Shown here in pieces: positions 6,478 to 12,709 of a stretch of 36,962 nt of DNA. How positions within the stretch are numbered: position 1 is the stretch's first letter; every line of letters begins with the position of its first letter. The notes under the pieces are model-generated. The model searched no databases and was not told the DNA's origin. It was given only the letters and a program-made list of their open reading frames with translations. Origin of the DNA: a virus (taxonomy: Duplodnaviria > Heunggongvirae > Uroviricota > Caudoviricetes); IMG/VR virus record IMGVR_UViG_2534681703_000017. One strand, given 5' to 3'. Position numbers and translations under genes: made by a program.

Positions 6478-7194
6478 ATGGAAAATAAAAGCAAATACAT
6501 CGCCAAAATTAAAAAGCTGTTACGCCTTGCCAGAGGAACATCAAGCCCGGAAGAAGCCGCTAACGCTATTGCAAAAGCCCAGGCTTATATGCGCCAGCAT
6601 GGCATCAGCGAAAACGACGCTGAATTGTTCGACATTCAGGAAGCTGCCAGCGCGGGTGCGCCGAGTGATGCCAGTACACCGCCGCGTTATATGCACATCC
6701 TGTGTGACCTGGTCTGTAAAGCCTTCGGTGTCGAGTGTTACATCTCCGGCGAATACCGGGCTTCTGGTTCACTCAAACGTTACGTTCGTTTTTATGGTCC
6801 TGACAGCCGCCCGGAAATTGCGGCATATGCGTTTGATGTGCTTTCCCGTCAGATGATGGCAGAGCGCAAGAAATATCAGGATAAACACTGCAAACGTTGC
6901 GGCCCGTCCACGCGGGTGGCCCGTGGCGACCAGTTCTGCGAAGGCTGGGTCTTTGGTGCCCGTGATGTCATTGCGGTGTATGACGTCTCCCCGGAAGAAA
7001 AAAGCCGCCTTGAGCTTTACAGAAAGAACCTGCACAGCACTAAGGGACTGCGCGACGGGGATATGCGCACAGCTAAAGCGTGCCGGGGTGCAGAGTTTGC
7101 CGCTACTGCCGGTTTTATCGCCGGGAAAAACGCCAGACTGCATCAGGGGGTTAATGGTCAGAGCAACAAAACGCTGGCACTGGGGAGGGTGTAA
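6478..7194 (+). CDS. DUF2786-like protein
   Basis: N-terminal KIKKLLRLARGTSSPEEAANAIAKAQAYM resembles the DUF2786 signature as remembered; Cys-containing C-terminal half (CKRCG...CEGW). Confidence 0.5.
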   Translation: MENKSKYIAKIKKLLRLARGTSSPEEAANAIAKAQAYMRQHGISENDAELFDIQEAASAGAPSDASTPPRYMHILCDLVCKAFGVECYISGEYRASGSLKRYVRFYGPDSRPEIAAYAFDVLSRQMMAERKKYQDKHCKRCGPSTRVARGDQFCEGWVFGARDVIAVYDVSPEEKSRLELYRKNLHSTKGLRDGDMRTAKACRGAEFAATAGFIAGKNARLHQGVNGQSNKTLALGRV

Positions 7195-7196
7195 CG

Positions 7197-7424
7197 ATGG
7201 CTTTTAAACTTCTCAGTGTTACCGAAGCAATATACCAGCCGCCCGGAGAACGCCACGAATACAGGATGAATGACGGTAGCGCGGCGGTTGAGTTCCCCGG
7301 ATATCCGGGGGCTTCCCGGTGGCGGTTCTATGACAGTGCGGGACGCCGGATTATTAAAAGAATCGTGCACAACGCCATGAAAGCCGCTGTAGAACGTCAC
7401 AAAAGGAGGTTTAACTGCAAATGA
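7197..7424 (+). CDS. Hypothetical small protein (75 aa)
   Basis: Start 3 nt after the previous stop; part of a chain of translationally coupled small ORFs. Confidence 0.4.
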   Translation: MAFKLLSVTEAIYQPPGERHEYRMNDGSAAVEFPGYPGASRWRFYDSAGRRIIKRIVHNAMKAAVERHKRRFNCK

Positions 7425-7645
7425 ATATTGAATTTTATAACTATGGGACTAAAGCAAAAATCATTGTTACCTGCTGGCTCTGGGAGTTTCGCCGCTATAA
7501 CCGGGTTGTGGATGCGGCGCTTTTTGTGGCCCCTGAAGTGCACCATCAGAGCGGTGGCGGTCTTTTAATGAGAACCGTCATCTACGGTAAGACGGTCCCG
7601 ATGTTACGGGCGTTTAAAGTGGCAAAACAGGAGGCTGCACAATGA
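7421..7645 (+). CDS. Hypothetical small protein (74 aa)
   Basis: Start overlaps the previous stop (ATGA-type coupling). Confidence 0.4.
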   Translation: MNIEFYNYGTKAKIIVTCWLWEFRRYNRVVDAALFVAPEVHHQSGGGLLMRTVIYGKTVPMLRAFKVAKQEAAQ

Positions 7646-7833
7646 GTAACGAGCACATCCATCATTATCAGCGTGATGGGTCAATTTTCATATGCCAGCG
7701 TTGCGGCACAGCAAAGCATCGTAATGGTAAATACTGGTGGGCCGGTCGCTATTCAGAATCTGAACCACCATGTGTTGATGATGTTGTGGGGCAGGATGCG
7801 TGGTTTGAAACTGCAAAAAGCGAGGAAGGATGA
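7642..7833 (+). CDS. Small CxxC-containing protein (63 aa), possible zinc ribbon
   Basis: CQRC motif plus a third Cys and several His; start overlaps the previous stop. Confidence 0.4.
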   Translation: MSNEHIHHYQRDGSIFICQRCGTAKHRNGKYWWAGRYSESEPPCVDDVVGQDAWFETAKSEEG

Positions 7834-7834
7834 G

Positions 7835-8023
7835 ATGAAAAACCGTAAGGCAAGACTGCTGATAGCAAAGCCCGGGCAGTGTATCCGTATCTCAAACAGG
7901 CTTGTTATTTACTATAGATATCTGGGTTTTAGGGGGGGTTCCTCTATTCGTTTTTACGGTGTCTGGCGGAGCAGAAGCGCGGCGCAAAACCGCTGGAGGA
8001 ATCACGGAGCAACAACACGATGA
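7835..8023 (+). CDS. Hypothetical small basic protein (62 aa)
   Basis: ATG at 7835 just after the previous stop and preceded by GGAAGGA; in frame with track ORF 7673..8023. Confidence 0.35.
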   Translation: MKNRKARLLIAKPGQCIRISNRLVIYYRYLGFRGGSSIRFYGVWRSRSAAQNRWRNHGATTR

Positions 8024-8205
8024 AAACTATCACTGTAACGGTTGAAATCGACGTTCCTGATAACGCAACGGACAATGATATTGCTGATTTTGTCGATGTC
8101 GAGTATGGGGAGTGCGGAAAAATGGCACTTGATAACCCATGCCGGACAGATGGAACGGAAATACTCGATGCCAGATGGGAACACGGACCTGATTACGCGA
8201 GGTGA
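8020..8205 (+). CDS. Hypothetical small acidic protein (61 aa)
   Basis: Start overlaps the previous stop. Confidence 0.4.
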   Translation: MKTITVTVEIDVPDNATDNDIADFVDVEYGECGKMALDNPCRTDGTEILDARWEHGPDYAR

Positions 8206-8208
8206 AAT

Positions 8209-8466
8209 ATGAGATTGGTTGACCTTTTTATTATCGCTCTGATTATTACGGTTATTGCGCTTTGCGTTACAACGGGCAAGGAACCTGATGTTCCTGGTGA
8301 TACGGGTGGGCATTGCGTGGTAAGGAGAAGTTTCATCAAAACCATTACGCATTGTGATGATGGAAGCGCCACCATGACCAGCGGCGATAAGTTTATATAC
8401 TGCTCTGCCGGGAAAGATGGCACGCCATCCTGTCATGAAGTGACGCTCAGTGATGGTGATAAATAA
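8209..8466 (+). CDS. Small exported or membrane-anchored Cys-rich protein (85 aa)
   Basis: Hydrophobic N-terminus (LVDLFIIALIITVIALCV) followed by a four-Cys soluble part. Confidence 0.4.
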   Translation: MRLVDLFIIALIITVIALCVTTGKEPDVPGDTGGHCVVRRSFIKTITHCDDGSATMTSGDKFIYCSAGKDGTPSCHEVTLSDGDK

Positions 8467-8499
8467 TTCATCATGTTGAGCGGATAATAATCATGCGCA

Positions 8500-8543
8500 G
8501 ACCAAAACATATGTTTTGGTCTGCCAAAAGTGATGTTTTGGTC
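8500..8543. promoter_or_regulatory. Perfect 22-bp palindrome GACCAAAACATATGTTTTGGTC (8500-8521) plus direct copy of half-site ATGTTTTGGTC (8533-8543)
   Basis: Read directly from sequence; candidate dimeric protein-binding site inside the early region. Confidence 0.45.
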
Positions 8544-8546
8544 ATT

Positions 8547-8825
8547 ATGAAAATTGAACAAATCGGAATAGCTGCCTTCAGGCAGCAGGCTGAAAGCGGT
8601 GGTGTGGATGAGTTCGTCGTGCAGCGGTTCGGTGGTGTGTATCACCTCTTCGCTGTGAATCGCCGCGCCGGGGTGTCCTATTTTCTACAGGAACGCCGTG
8701 GCGATTACAAGACGTGGCTGTCTCTTGACCGTGCCGCCGCGTTCCTGTCGGGGATTGGTGTTTCACGTTTTACCGTGCGTTTTGAGGATAACAAACATGC
8801 TGAAAAAGATGATCGGGGCCATTAA
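8547..8825 (+). CDS. Hypothetical protein (92 aa; track ORF starts at 8493)
   Basis: In-frame ATGs at 8493, 8511 and 8547; the first two lie inside the palindrome, so the start is uncertain. 3' end overlaps the GemA-like gene. Confidence 0.3.
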   Translation: MKIEQIGIAAFRQQAESGGVDEFVVQRFGGVYHLFAVNRRAGVSYFLQERRGDYKTWLSLDRAAAFLSGIGVSRFTVRFEDNKHAEKDDRGH

Positions 8826-9192
8826 AGCCGGTCAGGCGTATCTGGGGTGGGATGATGCCCTTTATCGCCAGACGCTGGCCCGCCTGACCGGTAAAACCAG
8901 CACCACACGCTGCAATCTCGATGAACTGCGCATCATCCGGGAATACATGCACGAACAGGGATTCCCGCGCAAGGCACCCGCTGGTAAAGGTCGCCGCCCT
9001 CGTGTTGCAATGAGCAGAAAATCAGTATTATCCAAAATTGAAGCGTTGCTGGCTGATGCCGGTCGTTCCTGGGCGTATGTAGAAGGACTGGCATCTCACA
9101 TGTATAAGCAACATGTGATCGAATGGCTGACGGATGAACAGCTTTTTGGAGTGATGGTGGCGCTGGTTAAAGATTCAAGGAGACGTAAATGA
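8797..9192 (+). CDS. GemA-like (Mu gp16 family) protein
   Basis: ATG at 8797 preceded by GAGGA; LGWDDALYRQTLARLTGKTS...LRIIREYM resembles GemA/DUF1018 as remembered; the track ORF 8698..9192 extends upstream in the same frame. Confidence 0.5.
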   Translation: MLKKMIGAIKAGQAYLGWDDALYRQTLARLTGKTSTTRCNLDELRIIREYMHEQGFPRKAPAGKGRRPRVAMSRKSVLSKIEALLADAGRSWAYVEGLASHMYKQHVIEWLTDEQLFGVMVALVKDSRRRK

Positions 9193-9527
9193 AAAAACTG
9201 TTATTACTTATTCTGACTTTATGTTTTACAGGGATATCCCATGCTTCTGATTCAGAGGAAGATTTGATCAAAAAAACATTACAGGGCGATTATCAGGCAC
9301 AACGTAATCTGGCTTATTCATACATGAATGGCTGGGATGATATTTCAAAGGATACCATCAGAGGATGCGCTCTCAGGAAGGTTATTCTCTTAACACAAGC
9401 CCAAGCTGACATTGGCGATTATGGAAATGAAGCCATAGATTGTCGAAAAGTGCATCCAACAGATAACCAGAAAGTATGGGAGTATGTCAGAGGATACCTG
9501 GTGTTGATAAACGAGAATAAAAAATAA
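9189..9527 (+). CDS. Secreted (signal-peptide) protein, unknown function
   Basis: N-terminus MKKLLLLILTLCFTGISHA is a classic cleavable signal peptide; sits between the GemA-like and Mor/C-like genes. Confidence 0.5.
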   Translation: MKKLLLLILTLCFTGISHASDSEEDLIKKTLQGDYQAQRNLAYSYMNGWDDISKDTIRGCALRKVILLTQAQADIGDYGNEAIDCRKVHPTDNQKVWEYVRGYLVLINENKK

Positions 9528-9539
9528 TATGAATAACAA

Positions 9540-9563
9540 CCTTCGCAAACGCGGAGGTTTTTT
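9540..9563 (+). terminator. Putative intrinsic terminator: CCTTCGC-AAAC-GCGGAGG (one G-U pair) followed by TTTTTT
   Basis: Stem-loop and T-run read from sequence, directly downstream of the gene ending at 9527. Confidence 0.5.
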
Positions 9564-9569
9564 ATGGTC

Positions 9570-9597
9570 TGTACAGGCGATCATGTATGGCTATAAT
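9570..9597 (+). promoter_or_regulatory. Putative promoter with strong -10 (TATAAT 9592-9597) and weak -35 (TGTACA 9570-9575)
   Basis: Hexamers read from sequence, 16-nt spacer; placed between the terminator and the Mor/C-like gene. A poor -35 would fit an activator-dependent promoter. Confidence 0.35.
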
Positions 9598-9626
9598 AAC
9601 AGTAAGTTACTAACGGAGACGCCATC

Positions 9627-10094
9627 ATGCAGACCTTCAGTGAAACAGATCTTCGCGATGCACAGGCACTGCTACCCGATTCCGTACAGCAACTGATTAG
9701 CGTGATTGGCTTCCCCGCCCTGACCCGGTTGATTTGTTCTTTTGGTGGTGTGACGTTAAGTGGTAAAACCGGCGCACACGCCGAACGCACCGGCGGTGTC
9801 CATGCCCTGTTACATGACGTGCTGACCGAAGACGAAATCAACAAACTGATCCGCTTTCTTGGCGGTGCACCGTTTTACATTCCCCGTTGCGATCATGCGT
9901 TACGTGCCCTGCGTAACACCCGTTTTATGGCTGATTTACAGCAGCATGTAAAAGGCGGATGCTCACACCGGCAGGCGCTGGCACTGCTCTGTCCCCGTTA
10001 CGGCATTTCAGACCGGTACGCATGGCAGCTGATACACCGACGACAAAAACAGACTTCGCTGAAAAGCCCCACCCAGGTGGGGCTTTTTGATTAA
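9627..10094 (+). CDS. Mor/C-family transcription activator
   Basis: 155 aa; FLGGAPFYIPR and C-terminal HTH-like ISDRYAWQLIHRR resemble the Mu Mor/C family (..GGQVYIPRG..) as remembered. Confidence 0.6.
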   Translation: MQTFSETDLRDAQALLPDSVQQLISVIGFPALTRLICSFGGVTLSGKTGAHAERTGGVHALLHDVLTEDEINKLIRFLGGAPFYIPRCDHALRALRNTRFMADLQQHVKGGCSHRQALALLCPRYGISDRYAWQLIHRRQKQTSLKSPTQVGLFD

Positions 10095-10121
10095 TGGGCC
10101 TCAGAAAAAAGGAGACACGAA

Positions 10122-10409
10122 ATGATGCGTTCTGACACCGATATCGACTATGCAGTACTCGGTGAATATACCGCATTTTCAGACAAGGCCCGGGATGCAG
10201 CCCGTCGCCGACATGCTGAAATGTGTAATTTATCCAGTTACCTGGCGAAACAGGCCCAAAGCCCGGAATCAGTAACGAATCATGATGAAGTGCTGTCAGC
10301 CGTAAACAGAATGATTGACGCAGAACGGGAAATGCGTAATGCCGTGGAAAGAGCTAACCTGCTGGCGCGGGCATGTTATAAGCCACCATTAAAACTCGCT
10401 TCTCTTTAA
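10122..10409 (+). CDS. Hypothetical protein (95 aa)
   Basis: Track ORF with AAGGAGA-like RBS upstream. Confidence 0.4.
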   Translation: MMRSDTDIDYAVLGEYTAFSDKARDAARRRHAEMCNLSSYLAKQAQSPESVTNHDEVLSAVNRMIDAEREMRNAVERANLLARACYKPPLKLASL

Positions 10410-10432
10410 CCCATCCAGATAATCAACCTGCC

Positions 10433-10461
10433 GGGGGTGCTGAACTCCCCCAGCAGTACCC
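10433..10461. promoter_or_regulatory. Conserved late-region motif, copy A (GGGGGTGCTGAACTCCCCCAGCAGTACCC)
   Basis: Shares GGGTGCTGAAC plus C-rich tract and CAGTACCC with 17855-17883; lies in the ~190-bp gap upstream of the lysis genes. Confidence 0.45.
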
Positions 10462-10596
10462 ACCACACCAGACCGTTTACCCTGTCCACTCAGACCACAA
10501 GGCACCTTAAGGGATAGCGCCCTGCAAAAGGCTTTTGTGCCTTTGACAGGGTGTTATTTACGGGCCGTCAGTGGCTCAGATTTACAGGAGAAACTC

Positions 10597-10989
10597 ATGT
10601 CTGAACCCTTATCAGGCGGCGGAGCTGTGGCAGTCACCATCGGTGGTGCCAGTGTGTTTGGCCTTCTCACCAATACTGATTTCGGGGTCGTGGTGGGCGC
10701 GTTTGCTGGGGCGCTTTTTGTTGTCACGCAGCAGAAAGAAATCCCGGCATGGCGAATGGCTATTCACCTGCTCGTCGCGTTTGTGGTTGGCGTTCTGGGG
10801 GCTGGCGTGGCTGCGTCACTGATGCAGTGGCTGACCCACTATAACGACAAACCGCTTGATGCATTGTGTGCGGTCGGTGTCTCGGCGTTATCCATCAAGA
10901 TACTGACCTTTCTTTATCAACAGGAAATTTCATCGCTGTTCGGCCTGTTTTCCAGACTGCGCGGCGGAGGGGGTGGAAATGGAAAGTAG
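10597..10989 (+). CDS. Multi-pass membrane protein, putative holin
   Basis: ATG 10597 after CAGGAG; three to four hydrophobic segments; first gene of the lysis cassette. Confidence 0.45.
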   Translation: MSEPLSGGGAVAVTIGGASVFGLLTNTDFGVVVGAFAGALFVVTQQKEIPAWRMAIHLLVAFVVGVLGAGVAASLMQWLTHYNDKPLDALCAVGVSALSIKILTFLYQQEISSLFGLFSRLRGGGGGNGK

Positions 10990-11275
10990 CCTTGCCGGTA
11001 TCGTGAACGTCTGGCTGTGTCTCGCCATTGTGCTGGGGTTGTTTGTATATCGCCGACACGGTGCGGCGCATAAACCGATGATTACCTGGCTGGCGTACTG
11101 GCTGATGCTCGGCTACATCATCATCCCGTTCCGCTGGCTGTCCGGTACATACACGCACTCCAGCTGGCTGGTTGTGGCGCTGAATCTGGTTTTCTGTGCG
11201 CTTATCGTGTGGGCGCACGGGAATTTGTCAAAAATCCTTTCGTTACTGAGGCATCCACATGAAATCAAAAGATGA
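10973..11275 (+). CDS. Membrane protein, putative holin/antiholin
   Basis: 100 aa with about three predicted transmembrane helices, immediately upstream of the endolysin. Confidence 0.45.
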   Translation: MEMESSLAGIVNVWLCLAIVLGLFVYRRHGAAHKPMITWLAYWLMLGYIIIPFRWLSGTYTHSSWLVVALNLVFCALIVWAHGNLSKILSLLRHPHEIKR

Positions 11276-11804
11276 CATTTTTGATGAAGTCCTGGGCAAA
11301 GAAGGCGGTTACGTCAATCACCCGGACGATAAGGGCGGTCCGACCAAATGGGGCATTACGGAAAAAGTTGCCCGCGCCCACGGATACCGTGGCGATATGC
11401 GCAATTTAACCCGCGAACAGGCGCTGGACATCCTTGAAGCTGATTACTGGTATGGCCCGCGATTTGACCAGGTTGCGGCATTATCCCCTGATATTGCCGC
11501 AGAGCTGTGTGATACCGGTGTGAATATGGGGCCATCTGTGGCGTCAAGAATGCTTCAGCGCTGGCTGAATGTGTTCAATCTGCGCGGCAGGATGTATCCC
11601 GATATGGATGCAGACGGACGCATCGGGCCTCGCACCATCAGTGCATTGCGCGCCTTCCTGAATAATCGCGGTCAGGACGGTGAACGGGTGATGCTGACGG
11701 CCCTGAACTGCACGCAGGGGGACTGCTATCTGGAACTGGCAGAGAAACGCGAGGCTAACGAATCGTTTGTTTATGGCTGGCTGAAGGAGCGCGTGGCGGT
11801 ATGA
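11259..11804 (+). CDS. Endolysin, GH108-type lysozyme with C-terminal peptidoglycan-binding domain
   Basis: N-terminal GGYVNHPDDKGGPTKWGIT is the GH108 signature as remembered; no N-terminal signal-anchor. Confidence 0.7.
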   Translation: MKSKDDIFDEVLGKEGGYVNHPDDKGGPTKWGITEKVARAHGYRGDMRNLTREQALDILEADYWYGPRFDQVAALSPDIAAELCDTGVNMGPSVASRMLQRWLNVFNLRGRMYPDMDADGRIGPRTISALRAFLNNRGQDGERVMLTALNCTQGDCYLELAEKREANESFVYGWLKERVAV

Positions 11805-11983
11805 CGCGTCAGTACTGGACCCACAGAACGCCACGTAAAGCCGCGCGCTGTGTTCTGGCCCTGTTTCTGGTGATGTTGCTTCCGGTGGGATGCACAGACA
11901 TTAACAGAGCGGGCCAGCTGTTTGACGCGGCGGCGCAGGTCTGCCGGATTATTGACGGTATCCGGCAGTGTTCGCAGAACTGA
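11801..11983 (+). CDS. Small lipoprotein-like or membrane protein (60 aa), possible spanin component
   Basis: Basic N-terminus, hydrophobic stretch ending LPVGC, three Cys; overlaps the endolysin stop. Lipobox is non-canonical. Confidence 0.3.
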   Translation: MTRQYWTHRTPRKAARCVLALFLVMLLPVGCTDINRAGQLFDAAAQVCRIIDGIRQCSQN

Positions 11984-12056
11984 TTTTTTGAGGTCTGACA
12001 TAGTGAGCATTATCAGATTTACAGAATACAGAGGTTCAGGAGGTGCTGGCGCTGTC

Positions 12057-12209
12057 ATGGTGCTCGCTGAACGCATCACCCATTTTTACCGTCAGTACGG
12101 TACACATGATGGCACGGTCATTGAACTGGATACCGGGAAAAACGTGTATGTTCTTGAAAATCCCGACGAAGTTAAATGTCTGATTGAACAGGATCAGAAG
12201 GACACTTAA
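12057..12209 (+). CDS. Hypothetical small protein (50 aa)
   Basis: ATG 12057 about 13 nt after AGGAGG; in frame with the longer track ORF 11922..12209; start uncertain. Confidence 0.25.
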   Translation: MVLAERITHFYRQYGTHDGTVIELDTGKNVYVLENPDEVKCLIEQDQKDT

Positions 12210-12709
12210 TGGCGTGGTCACAGGATATCAGGGACAAAGTCCGTAACGGGTACATCTTTGACCAGCTTCCGCTGGATATCGTCGCCATGAAGTACGCCGT
12301 GCCGCACGACACCGCGCGGCGCTGGAAAACGCAGGCAATGAAGAACGGCGACGACTGGGACAAGCTGCGGGCCGCGCACGCGCTCGCCGGTGACGGGCTG
12401 GAAAGTGTCGCCCGCACCGTGCTTATCAGTCTGGTGGTGAAGTGTCAGACGACGCTTGAGCGGCTGAACCAGAACCCGGACATCCCGCCGCAGGAGTCCG
12501 TCGAACTGCTGGCGAGTCTGTCTGACAGTCTCAGTAAGGCGGTGGCCAGCAGCAAAAAAATCCTGCCGGAAACCGACCGGCTCGCCACGGCACTGGAAGT
12601 GGTGCAGCGGCTCGGCGCGTTCATCAAGGAGCGTCACCCGGCACAGTATGCCCCGTTTCTTGAGGTGCTCGAAGGCTTCGCTAAAGAGCTTGAGGATAAT
12701 TTCAGTTAA
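12209..12709 (+). CDS. Putative terminase small subunit (Mu gp27-like, DUF1804-like)
   Basis: 166-aa ORF immediately upstream of the large terminase; family assignment from memory and synteny. Confidence 0.45.
   Translation: MAWSQDIRDKVRNGYIFDQLPLDIVAMKYAVPHDTARRWKTQAMKNGDDWDKLRAAHALAGDGLESVARTVLISLVVKCQTTLERLNQNPDIPPQESVELLASLSDSLSKAVASSKKILPETDRLATALEVVQRLGAFIKERHPAQYAPFLEVLEGFAKELEDNFS

Follow-up and report, generated by a model that had tools for sequence, protein, structure and literature searches.

The DNA examined here is a stretch of 36,962 nucleotides (hereafter the window) from the IMG/VR virus record IMGVR_UViG_2534681703_000017 (Duplodnaviria; Heunggongvirae; Uroviricota; Caudoviricetes), and the subjects of this analysis are two small genes on its plus strand, both opening with ATG, which encode proteins of 85 residues (8209..8466) and 112 residues (9189..9527). 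The gene content marks the window as a Mu-like transposable prophage of E. coli. Reading 5' to 3', a helix-turn-helix (HTH) repressor gene on the minus strand (173-850) is followed by a ner-like gene (HTH_35), MuA (in which a domain library scan finds Mu-transpos_C and HTH_Tnp_Mu_1), MuB (AAA_22), DUF3164 and DUF2786 genes, gemA and mor, and downstream of mor lie two holin-family genes and a GH108 endolysin gene, then further large open reading frames (ORFs). The repressor, ner, MuA, MuB, gemA and mor that define a Mu-like early region are thus all present ahead of the lysis genes. The best DNA matches of the window are chromosomal prophages of E. coli, and part of positions 7600-10200, the stretch that contains both small genes, gemA and mor, is matched in 82 of 5,426 complete genomes, the matches being mosaic. 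A first-pass annotation had called the two ORFs, assigned them to an early or regulatory phage region and proposed that their products are exported factors acting in lysogenic conversion or superinfection exclusion; the ORF boundaries prove exact, and both genes do lie in the early region of the prophage.

The 112-residue gene is preceded by a Shine-Dalgarno-like aaggag (9177-9182) and its product matches phrog_5882, a family of unknown function, from end to end (E 9.9e-58). The first 19 codons (9189..9245) are predicted to encode a Sec-type signal peptide, MKKLLLLILTLCFTGISHA, with the n-region MKK, the h-region LLLLILTLCF (Kyte-Doolittle 3.2 over 10 residues) and the c-region TGISHA, followed by SD. 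Cleavage is predicted after SHA, at Ala19, with Ser at -3 and Ala at -1 as the -3/-1 rule demands, and the features of a signal peptidase I substrate, namely a basic n-region, a core of 7-15 residues and no lipobox Cys at +1, are all present. A lipoprotein reading was rejected because the residues ahead of Cys12, LTL, do not make up a lipobox. For this protein and for the 85-residue protein alike, the assignment of export draws on hydropathy, the -3/-1 rule, conserved Cys pairs and conservation across the family, and on these grounds both are very probably exported.

Structure prediction, which the first-pass annotation had suggested as a check, supports a compact helical domain behind the signal peptide. 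The AlphaFold model of the 112-residue protein has an overall predicted local distance difference test score (pLDDT) of 85.1, with residues 1-19 unstructured (<50) and residues 21-110 at ~87-98 per 10-residue block. The mature 10.7-kDa protein (codons 20-112; 9246..9524) is modelled as five helices, comprising a capping helix and two alpha/alpha hairpins, and contains Cys60, Cys85 and the motif LQGDYQAQRNLAYSY. In the model the tandem hairpins are arranged as in a right-handed repeat solenoid, and on this basis the mature protein is a minimal two-hairpin module of the Sel1-like repeat/tetratricopeptide repeat (SLR/TPR) type. The Pfam Sel1 profile (PF08238) scores only 15.5 bits on the protein, against a gathering cut-off of 30.7 (E 0.026, residues 36-59 only), and since this threshold is missed, the family is filed here as SLR-like in fold rather than as curated Sel1. 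Sequence and profile searches of the PDB gave no significant match for the family of either protein: the 112-residue family returned a Sel1 repeat protein only (E 0.13-0.8), and matches to chymase and dynein light chain (E 0.4-0.9) were set aside as chance. A disulfide between Cys60 and Cys85 probably stabilizes the module and, in the model, would join helix B of the first hairpin to helix A of the second.

The 112-residue protein proves to have many relatives. In a first search it returned nine clusters, from E. coli, Citrobacter and, at ~40% identity, Rodentibacter and uncultured phages, all nine of which have an equivalent signal peptide, a LQGDYQAQRNLAYSY-type motif and two invariant Cys residues. 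A profile search against 1.84 billion cluster representatives then found 409 proteins at E<=1e-3, including 122 at E<=1e-10, which puts the family at a minimum of 409 clusters at 50% identity. The conserved unit of ~85 residues is often the entire mature protein and sometimes the C-terminal domain of proteins of 250-330 residues. Across an alignment of 106 sequences, Y35, R39, C60 and D77 are invariant, and G33, Q36, N40, A42, N80 and C85, among others, are at least 90% conserved; the Sel1 profile makes weak matches to 6 of these 106 relatives (best E 0.0016). The cleavable signal peptide noted in the first-pass annotation is matched family-wide by a hydrophobic N-terminal segment, found within the first 45 residues of 226 of 253 relatives (~89%), 69 of which also carry a loose lipobox-like pattern. 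Most of the other relatives either look like truncated gene calls or place a zinc-ribbon-like CxxC segment and, after it, a hydrophobic segment ahead of the domain. Furthermore, a 75-residue window anchored on the motif, which could be placed in 242 relatives, contains exactly two Cys residues in 210 of them, four in 30 and three in 2. Because of these export segments and Cys pairs, the family is read as extracytoplasmic and as a minimal SLR-type module that is probably stabilized by a disulfide.

Neither Pfam nor NCBIfam nor PADLOC has an entry for the family, whose members are named 'hypothetical' in databases, except for one Sel1 domain label and one 'beta/gamma crystallin' label (UniRef). 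Among deposited phage genomes, a detectable relative was found only in Mannheimia phage 3927AP2 (gp15) and Rhizobium phage RR1-A, both annotated as hypothetical, and literature searches on Sel1 with prophage exclusion or with Mu-like phages returned nothing on the family. Several members are longer, among them P0034, P0038, P0051 and P0129 (~255-260 residues) and P0043, P0191 and P0215 (~320-330 residues): some long members carry an additional N-terminal domain of ~150 residues, with conserved Cys residues of its own, behind a hydrophobic or lipobox-like N-terminus, and in others a cytoplasmic zinc-ribbon-like CxxC segment and a hydrophobic segment precede the Sel1-like domain. The 254-residue form P0129, in locus L017, occupies the same position between mor and the lysis genes as do shorter members.

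The setting of the 112-residue gene is as distinctive as its product. Its ATG overlaps the stop codon (ATGA) of gemA (Mu gp16 family; 8797..9192, plus strand; Pfam GemA, E 3.8e-18), the junction reading ...cgtaaATGAaaa, and an alignment of four sister prophages places the gene precisely in the interval from the gemA stop codon to a conserved intrinsic terminator (9538..9566, plus strand; hairpin 9538-9559 plus a T run; 9-bp stem and 4-nucleotide loop), which begins 11 nucleotides after the stop codon of the 112-residue gene. This slot is empty in L011, contains the 112-residue gene in the window, L001 and L002, and in L012 (3448-3927) and L013 (4990-5469) is filled by an unrelated protein of 159 residues, which starts with a clear signal peptide (MMKKWLFCLVGVIFSCSALA) and for which Pfam offers no match; exported proteins seem to accumulate in this slot. 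The 112-residue gene is present in only 13 of the 82 genomes that match positions 7600-10200, and its GC content of 38-42% is well below the ~54-59% of its flanks. Given that the 85-residue gene is found in just 7 of the same 82 genomes, both genes are optional accessory cargo and not core replication genes, as the first-pass annotation had supposed.

The terminator keeps its position in prophages with the 112-residue gene, with other cargo and with an empty slot, the stem sequence being different in the last case, and because it is present in the empty slot too, it belongs to the phage backbone rather than to the cargo. Directly beyond it lies a promoter-like TGTACA-16-TATAAT (9570..9597, plus strand; 10/12 match), likewise a backbone feature and invariant in the four aligned prophages, and then mor, a Mor/C-family transcription activator gene (9627..10094, plus strand; Pfam Mor, E 1e-06; phrog_836, E 1.5e-42). 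With the conserved terminator ahead of it and, after that, a promoter-like site whose TATAAT is perfect, mor may be transcribed separately from the early operon here, unlike in Mu, in which it overlaps gemA. A crude consensus scan of the plus strand found no sigma-70-like promoter within 8467-9570. With its ATG overlapping gemA, no promoter found upstream and a terminator that is part of the backbone, the 112-residue gene is read as the last cistron of the repressor-controlled early operon, and its layout suggests that it is probably expressed early in the lytic cycle. It thus shares with the mobile prophage genes known as morons a terminator (although this is a backbone feature), a deviant composition and a presence/absence polymorphism, and differs from them in having no promoter of its own. 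The same observations fail to support the part of the first-pass annotation that invoked lysogenic conversion: no evidence for it was found here, and strict lysogenic conversion is disfavoured in this phage.

Relatives at ~40% identity occupy the corresponding position, gemA-X-mor (where X denotes a member of the 112-residue family), in contigs of uncultured Mu-like phages, for which the nearest named relatives come from Pasteurellaceae (Rodentibacter and Mannheimia), and in Mannheimia phage vB_MhM_3927AP2 X is gp15, in the same slot. In this Mannheimia phage (L067, 2382-2836) and in the related contig L003 (4963-5387), X lies between two intrinsic terminators with no sigma-70 promoter detected between them, which suggests that X is expressed by terminator read-through or from an unrecognized promoter. 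A terminator-like hairpin shortly follows X in about half of the loci with Mu-like context; together with the arrangement in L067 and L003, this fits a gene that is the last of its transcription unit.

More distant homologues on large contigs are in Mu-like prophages in five of five cases (Sideroxydans, Herbaspirillum, Mariprofundus, Undibacterium and a metagenome bin), where they follow gemA-mor or the repressor and precede holin/SLT or GH19 lysis genes by one or two genes. A scan of one genome per species yielded 47 loci, from Alpha-, Beta- and Gammaproteobacteria and from a few Acidobacteria, Armatimonadaceae and Longimicrobium bins, and in 20 of these 47 a Mu-like prophage, as called by home-made profiles of eight Mu markers, lies within 10 kb. 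Two layouts recur, a colinear one, gemA-mor-X-lysis, and a divergent, B3-like one, in which the early genes run in the opposite direction and X closes a short operon that opens with an HTH or S24 repressor gene (L015, L022, L042, L046 and L037; same strand, junctions often overlapping or short). In four of the B3-like loci (L015, 4937-6348; L022, 8578-10300; L042, 8950-10339; L046, 8859-10279) a protein of ~175-275 residues is encoded between the HTH repressor and X with overlapping junctions; it has no significant Pfam domains and is a possible functional partner of X.

That the family might be exclusive to Mu-like phages was considered and rejected, as the home-made profiles detect no Mu marker at 27 of the 47 loci. 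Neighbours sampled there comprise, among others, restriction systems, a tape-measure/DNA-circulation tail module, a subtilase and DUF6035/DUF7830 proteins. Outside Mu-like prophages, X starts 12 nucleotides after the end of a Type IIG restriction-modification gene in L048 (6336-10333), lies ~1.7 kb downstream of a Type III restriction enzyme gene in L053 (5554-10285), and in L039 (9914-11911) stands directly upstream of a subtilase gene for which PADLOC has a matching candidate model. Although the sample is small, X outside Mu-like prophages may be associated with defence islands. Also of note is a bAvd-like gene with a reverse transcriptase gene (RVT_1) in L014 (296-2064), the Sideroxydans lithotrophicus prophage, ~3 kb upstream of gemA, a pair which suggests a diversity-generating retroelement at an unusual position. 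In sum, the gene of the 112-residue family is an autonomous, mobile accessory element that strongly favours Mu-like phages and is a fixed component of no single machine. New relative to the first-pass annotation is the finding that the protein is a member of a sizeable family of secreted, SLR-like proteins, which is uncurated and has a conserved address in those phages.

The 85-residue gene begins 4 nucleotides past the upstream ORF, behind a Shine-Dalgarno-like gaggtg (8199-8204), and its product matches phrog_8391, also of unknown function, from end to end (E 2.7e-60). The hydrophobic N-terminal anchor or signal and the richness in Cys that the first-pass annotation had pointed out are both evident. 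Residues 3-21 (8215..8271) form the best 19-residue window, with a mean hydropathy of 2.86, and are helical in the AlphaFold model; among relatives the sequence of this helix drifts while its hydrophobicity is kept. The helix is probably an uncleaved signal anchor with the N-terminus inside and the C-terminus outside, as judged from the sequence, in which a net acidic flank follows the helix on its C-terminal side (the linker is of low confidence in the model); processing after TTG is a possible alternative. Beyond the linker, codons 35-85 (8311..8463) encode a conserved domain of ~50 residues with five predicted beta strands (pLDDT ~70). Four of the five Cys residues, at positions 36, 49, 65 and 75, are invariant in seven of seven family members and probably form two disulfides, whereas the fifth, Cys19, lies inside the helix and varies. 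A lipoprotein reading was rejected here as well, because Leu precedes Cys19 and Cys19 is not conserved. Identity among relatives is 73-94% in the predicted ectodomain versus 6-82% in the anchor and linker, and pairwise dN/dS (the ratio of nonsynonymous to synonymous substitution rates) is 0.28-0.64.

The family of the 85-residue protein is small, consisting of six homologous clusters (the named ones from Salmonella) and six IMG/VR contigs of 11-40 kb, and all six relatives are in Mu-like prophages of enteric bacteria. A divergent homologue (P0014 in L013) occupies the same slot, two genes upstream of gemA. Searches of Pfam, PHROG, PDB, NCBIfam and PADLOC, and fold searches, gave no functional lead for this protein. 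The gene is located in a hypervariable cargo zone that ends at an element (8497-8546) immediately before the ATG (8547) of a 92-residue gene upstream of gemA; the conserved block made up of the 92-residue gene and gemA begins after it. The element consists of a perfect 14+14 palindrome, GCAGACCAAAACAT|ATGTTTTGGTCTGC, with a third copy of ATGTTTTGGTC behind it, and is near-invariant in five prophages, with or without the 85-residue gene. It looks like an operator or a processing site, and it stands at the position of the 'semi-early' promoter that lies upstream of gemA in Mu.

Two further ORFs of the region deserve mention. A 144-residue antisense ORF (8002-8436, minus strand) overlaps a 61-residue gene and the 85-residue gene, and is probably spurious, because the plus-strand genes match their families over their full lengths. 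Between mor and the holin genes, a 95-residue ORF (10122-10409), which matches phrog_7152 (unknown function) end to end, takes the position of Mu gp18, the first gene of the Mu middle operon. No second activator of the C type was seen among the genes scanned from mor to the endolysin.

Compared with known SLR proteins, such as E. coli c5321/EsiB (4bwr), Legionella LpnE (6deh) and EnhC, the periplasmic domain of Vibrio SflA (6if6) and the Helicobacter Hcp proteins, which contain from 4 to more than 20 repeats, the 112-residue protein is minimal, with two hairpins and a cap in ~93 residues. Its Cys pair would, according to the model, lie between hairpins rather than within one repeat as in the known proteins, and its family differs from them in being carried preferentially by Mu-like phages. 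In Mu itself the neighbourhood, in the semi-essential early region and the middle genes, is the same, with gemA and mor ending the early region and membrane proteins and the endolysin following; however, gemA and mor overlap in Mu, leaving no slot between them, whereas in the window a cargo slot separates them. The profile of the 112-residue family has no match in the Mu record (L019) at positions 7000-12500, and homology to gp18 or to any other Mu gene in this interval was rejected for that reason. On reading its sequence, Mu gp18 (72 residues) has no hydrophobic N-terminal segment.

In lambda, rexAB follows cI, and in the B3-like relatives the 112-residue family follows a repressor gene in like manner. 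HK97 gp15 and T5 Llp are tiny envelope-anchored proteins, which the 85-residue protein resembles in both respects. Exclusion genes of the moron or immunity-operon kind (lambda rexAB, HK97 gp15, T5 Llp (PMC9586334) and Cor) are likewise optional, compositionally deviant cargo at a junction between transcription units; unlike morons, the 112-residue gene is translationally coupled to gemA, ends at a backbone terminator and shows no autonomous promoter. No homology of the window proteins to RexAB, HK97 gp15, Llp or Cor was found in PHROG or PADLOC. The timing expected for the 112-residue protein is nearer to that of the T4 protein Spackle than to that of a lysogen-expressed moron, since Spackle, too, is a small periplasmic protein that has a signal peptide and is produced from an early transcript of its phage; it excludes other phages by binding and inhibiting the incoming tail lysozyme, gp5 (PMC7677548). 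A further parallel is offered by Sel1-repeat immunity proteins of type VI secretion systems (T6SS), that is K. pneumoniae Sel1E, which counters the T6SS toxin VgrG4, and the P. aeruginosa PA5087 family, small SLR proteins that neutralize a toxin by binding it (PMC7108748). The likeness of the 112-residue protein to these is at the level of the repeat fold only, and no T6SS genes were seen among the sampled neighbours of its family.

These features can be assembled into a tentative account of function. The 112-residue protein would be made at the end of the early lytic transcript, by translation coupled to that of gemA, and exported by Sec with removal of its 19-residue signal peptide, after which the mature 10.7-kDa protein would fold in the periplasm into a module probably locked by the Cys60-Cys85 disulfide. 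SLR/TPR modules generally work by binding another protein, and we infer that this one does the same, occupying or neutralizing a target in the periplasm or envelope and so protecting the infected or lysogenic cell, either by excluding superinfecting phages or by conferring immunity to an envelope-acting enzyme or toxin. The 85-residue product would be held in the inner membrane by its N-terminal helix (N in, C out) and expose to the periplasm a small beta domain that probably contains two disulfides, which by the same logic makes it a candidate envelope-acting accessory factor. A protective role is favoured because the gene is optional, mobile and exported, because it lies in the immunity operon in the B3-like layout and because it is twice found beside restriction systems. 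The claims regarding export, fold class and cargo status, taken alone, can be made with high confidence, while the complete account, protective function included, is plausible without quite reaching the point at which it could be called probable. With respect to the first-pass proposal of conversion or exclusion, the exported and accessory nature of the proteins, the place of the family in repressor operons of B3-like relatives and the two restriction neighbours lend some support, but no link to any known exclusion family was found.

Several observations weigh against this account. Neither protein resembles characterized exclusion or defence proteins in sequence, profile or fold (PHROG, PADLOC, NCBIfam, BFVD): the PHROG matches of both are to families of unknown function only, PADLOC and NCBIfam return nothing for either, and a Foldseek comparison with viral structures (BFVD) gives no match at E<=0.001. 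Nor can a target be deduced from the fold, since SLR/TPR modules bind very diverse partners. As the 112-residue gene has no promoter of its own, a lysogen would derive no benefit from it, barring read-through or an undetected promoter. Furthermore, the home-made profiles detect no Mu-like marker at 27 of the 47 species-representative loci, and the neighbours sampled at these 27 include housekeeping-type genes (a hypB-like gene and hypF), so that the family is not strictly a phage function. The usual proximity of the family to lysis cassettes fits a role in lysis equally well. The AlphaFold model of the 85-residue protein is of moderate quality (pLDDT 64.6), its fold matches are uninformative, and export, disulfides and phenotype are for both proteins predictions.

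The main rival to a protective role is that the 112-residue protein is a lysis-associated factor which, from the periplasm, regulates or inhibits a murein hydrolase or the lysis machinery; in the manner of EnhC, it might for instance restrain the endolysin or a host lytic transglycosylase until lysis is due. Such a role would agree with the lysis cassette (holin with SLT, GH19, GH108 or amidase) being the usual downstream neighbour, at most two genes away, in both Mu-like layouts, with the inhibition of a Legionella peptidoglycan transglycosylase by the SLR protein EnhC (reviewed in PMC9867486) and with the use of unusual regulators such as releasin in Mu-type lysis (PMC9239132). A dedicated partnership with one endolysin class was nevertheless rejected, because the endolysin type varies (GH108, Amidase_2, SLT, GH19) and the family thus lacks an enzyme partner common to all its phages. 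Among related E. coli prophages that share the lysis genes of the window, most have the slot empty or otherwise filled, a terminator, a promoter, mor and the 95-residue gene stand between the 112-residue gene and the holins in the window, and members of the family also occur outside Mu-like prophages or away from the lysis cassette, so that a lysis role appears unlikely, if worth keeping in view. Less likely again is that the two proteins are lysogenic-conversion factors which are made by the resting prophage and alter the surface or periplasm of the lysogen, as would an orphan immunity protein of T6SS or colicin type or a host-interaction antigen resembling the SLR protein c5321/EsiB. In B3-like relatives X does come after an HTH or S24 repressor gene, on the same strand as it and with junctions that overlap or are short, the 112-residue gene has a deviant GC content and a presence/absence polymorphism, c5321 is among the closest structural matches of the protein and SLR proteins can be immunity proteins (PMC7108748). 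Both genes of the window, however, lie inside the early operon, and silencing of that operon by the prophage repressor is to be expected: the 112-residue gene starts within the gemA stop codon and has no promoter-like site upstream, the 85-residue gene follows its upstream ORF by 4 nucleotides, and in L067 and L003 two terminators enclose the gene, with no promoter detected.

It is also conceivable that the 112-residue protein tunes envelope signalling or assembly in the host, through the periplasmic domain of a sensor kinase or through an envelope machine (of the ExoR, SflA or AlgK type), and thereby adjusts host physiology for phage development rather than blocking other phages. Nothing specific points to such a role beyond the generic repeat fold, and it must contend with a host range from Pasteurellaceae to Zetaproteobacteria and Acidobacteria, which would require a very widely conserved target, and with the dispensability of the gene in most sister prophages; we regard it as improbable. 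That one or both ORFs arose by chance or are decaying remnants might be suspected from their short length, from the antisense ORF (8002-8436) that overlaps the 85-residue gene and from the dN/dS of 0.64 in its closest pair. This notion is effectively refuted by conservation, as both products have full-length PHROG matches and both genes good ribosome-binding sites, intact homologues at 40-55% identity occupy the same slot in distant phages, Cys residues and motifs are invariant and the 112-residue protein has a confident structure model.

A bolder version of the protective role, which we consider doubtful, would make the 112-residue protein, as far as annotation goes, the founding member of a new and widespread class of periplasmic phage factors with an undescribed mechanism of exclusion or immunity, and the 85-residue protein a second, independent factor. 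Mu-like phages across the Proteobacteria would then keep a disulfide-locked, two-hairpin SLR module at the boundary between their regulatory and lysis genes, which might act, for example, by capturing a tail component of an incoming phage or an envelope-degrading enzyme.

Small exported proteins are among the least annotated parts of prophages and a recurrent source of exclusion, immunity and host-modifying functions. Through the present analysis two 'hypothetical proteins' become defined, one as a secreted, minimal Sel1-like binding module and the other as a member of a narrow family of anchored, disulfide-rich ectodomains, insofar as can be predicted. Should the protective role prove false, the 112-residue family would still merit a curated domain model; should it prove true, transposable phages would gain a periplasmic mechanism of protection, built on a compact protein-binding scaffold whose target can be found.

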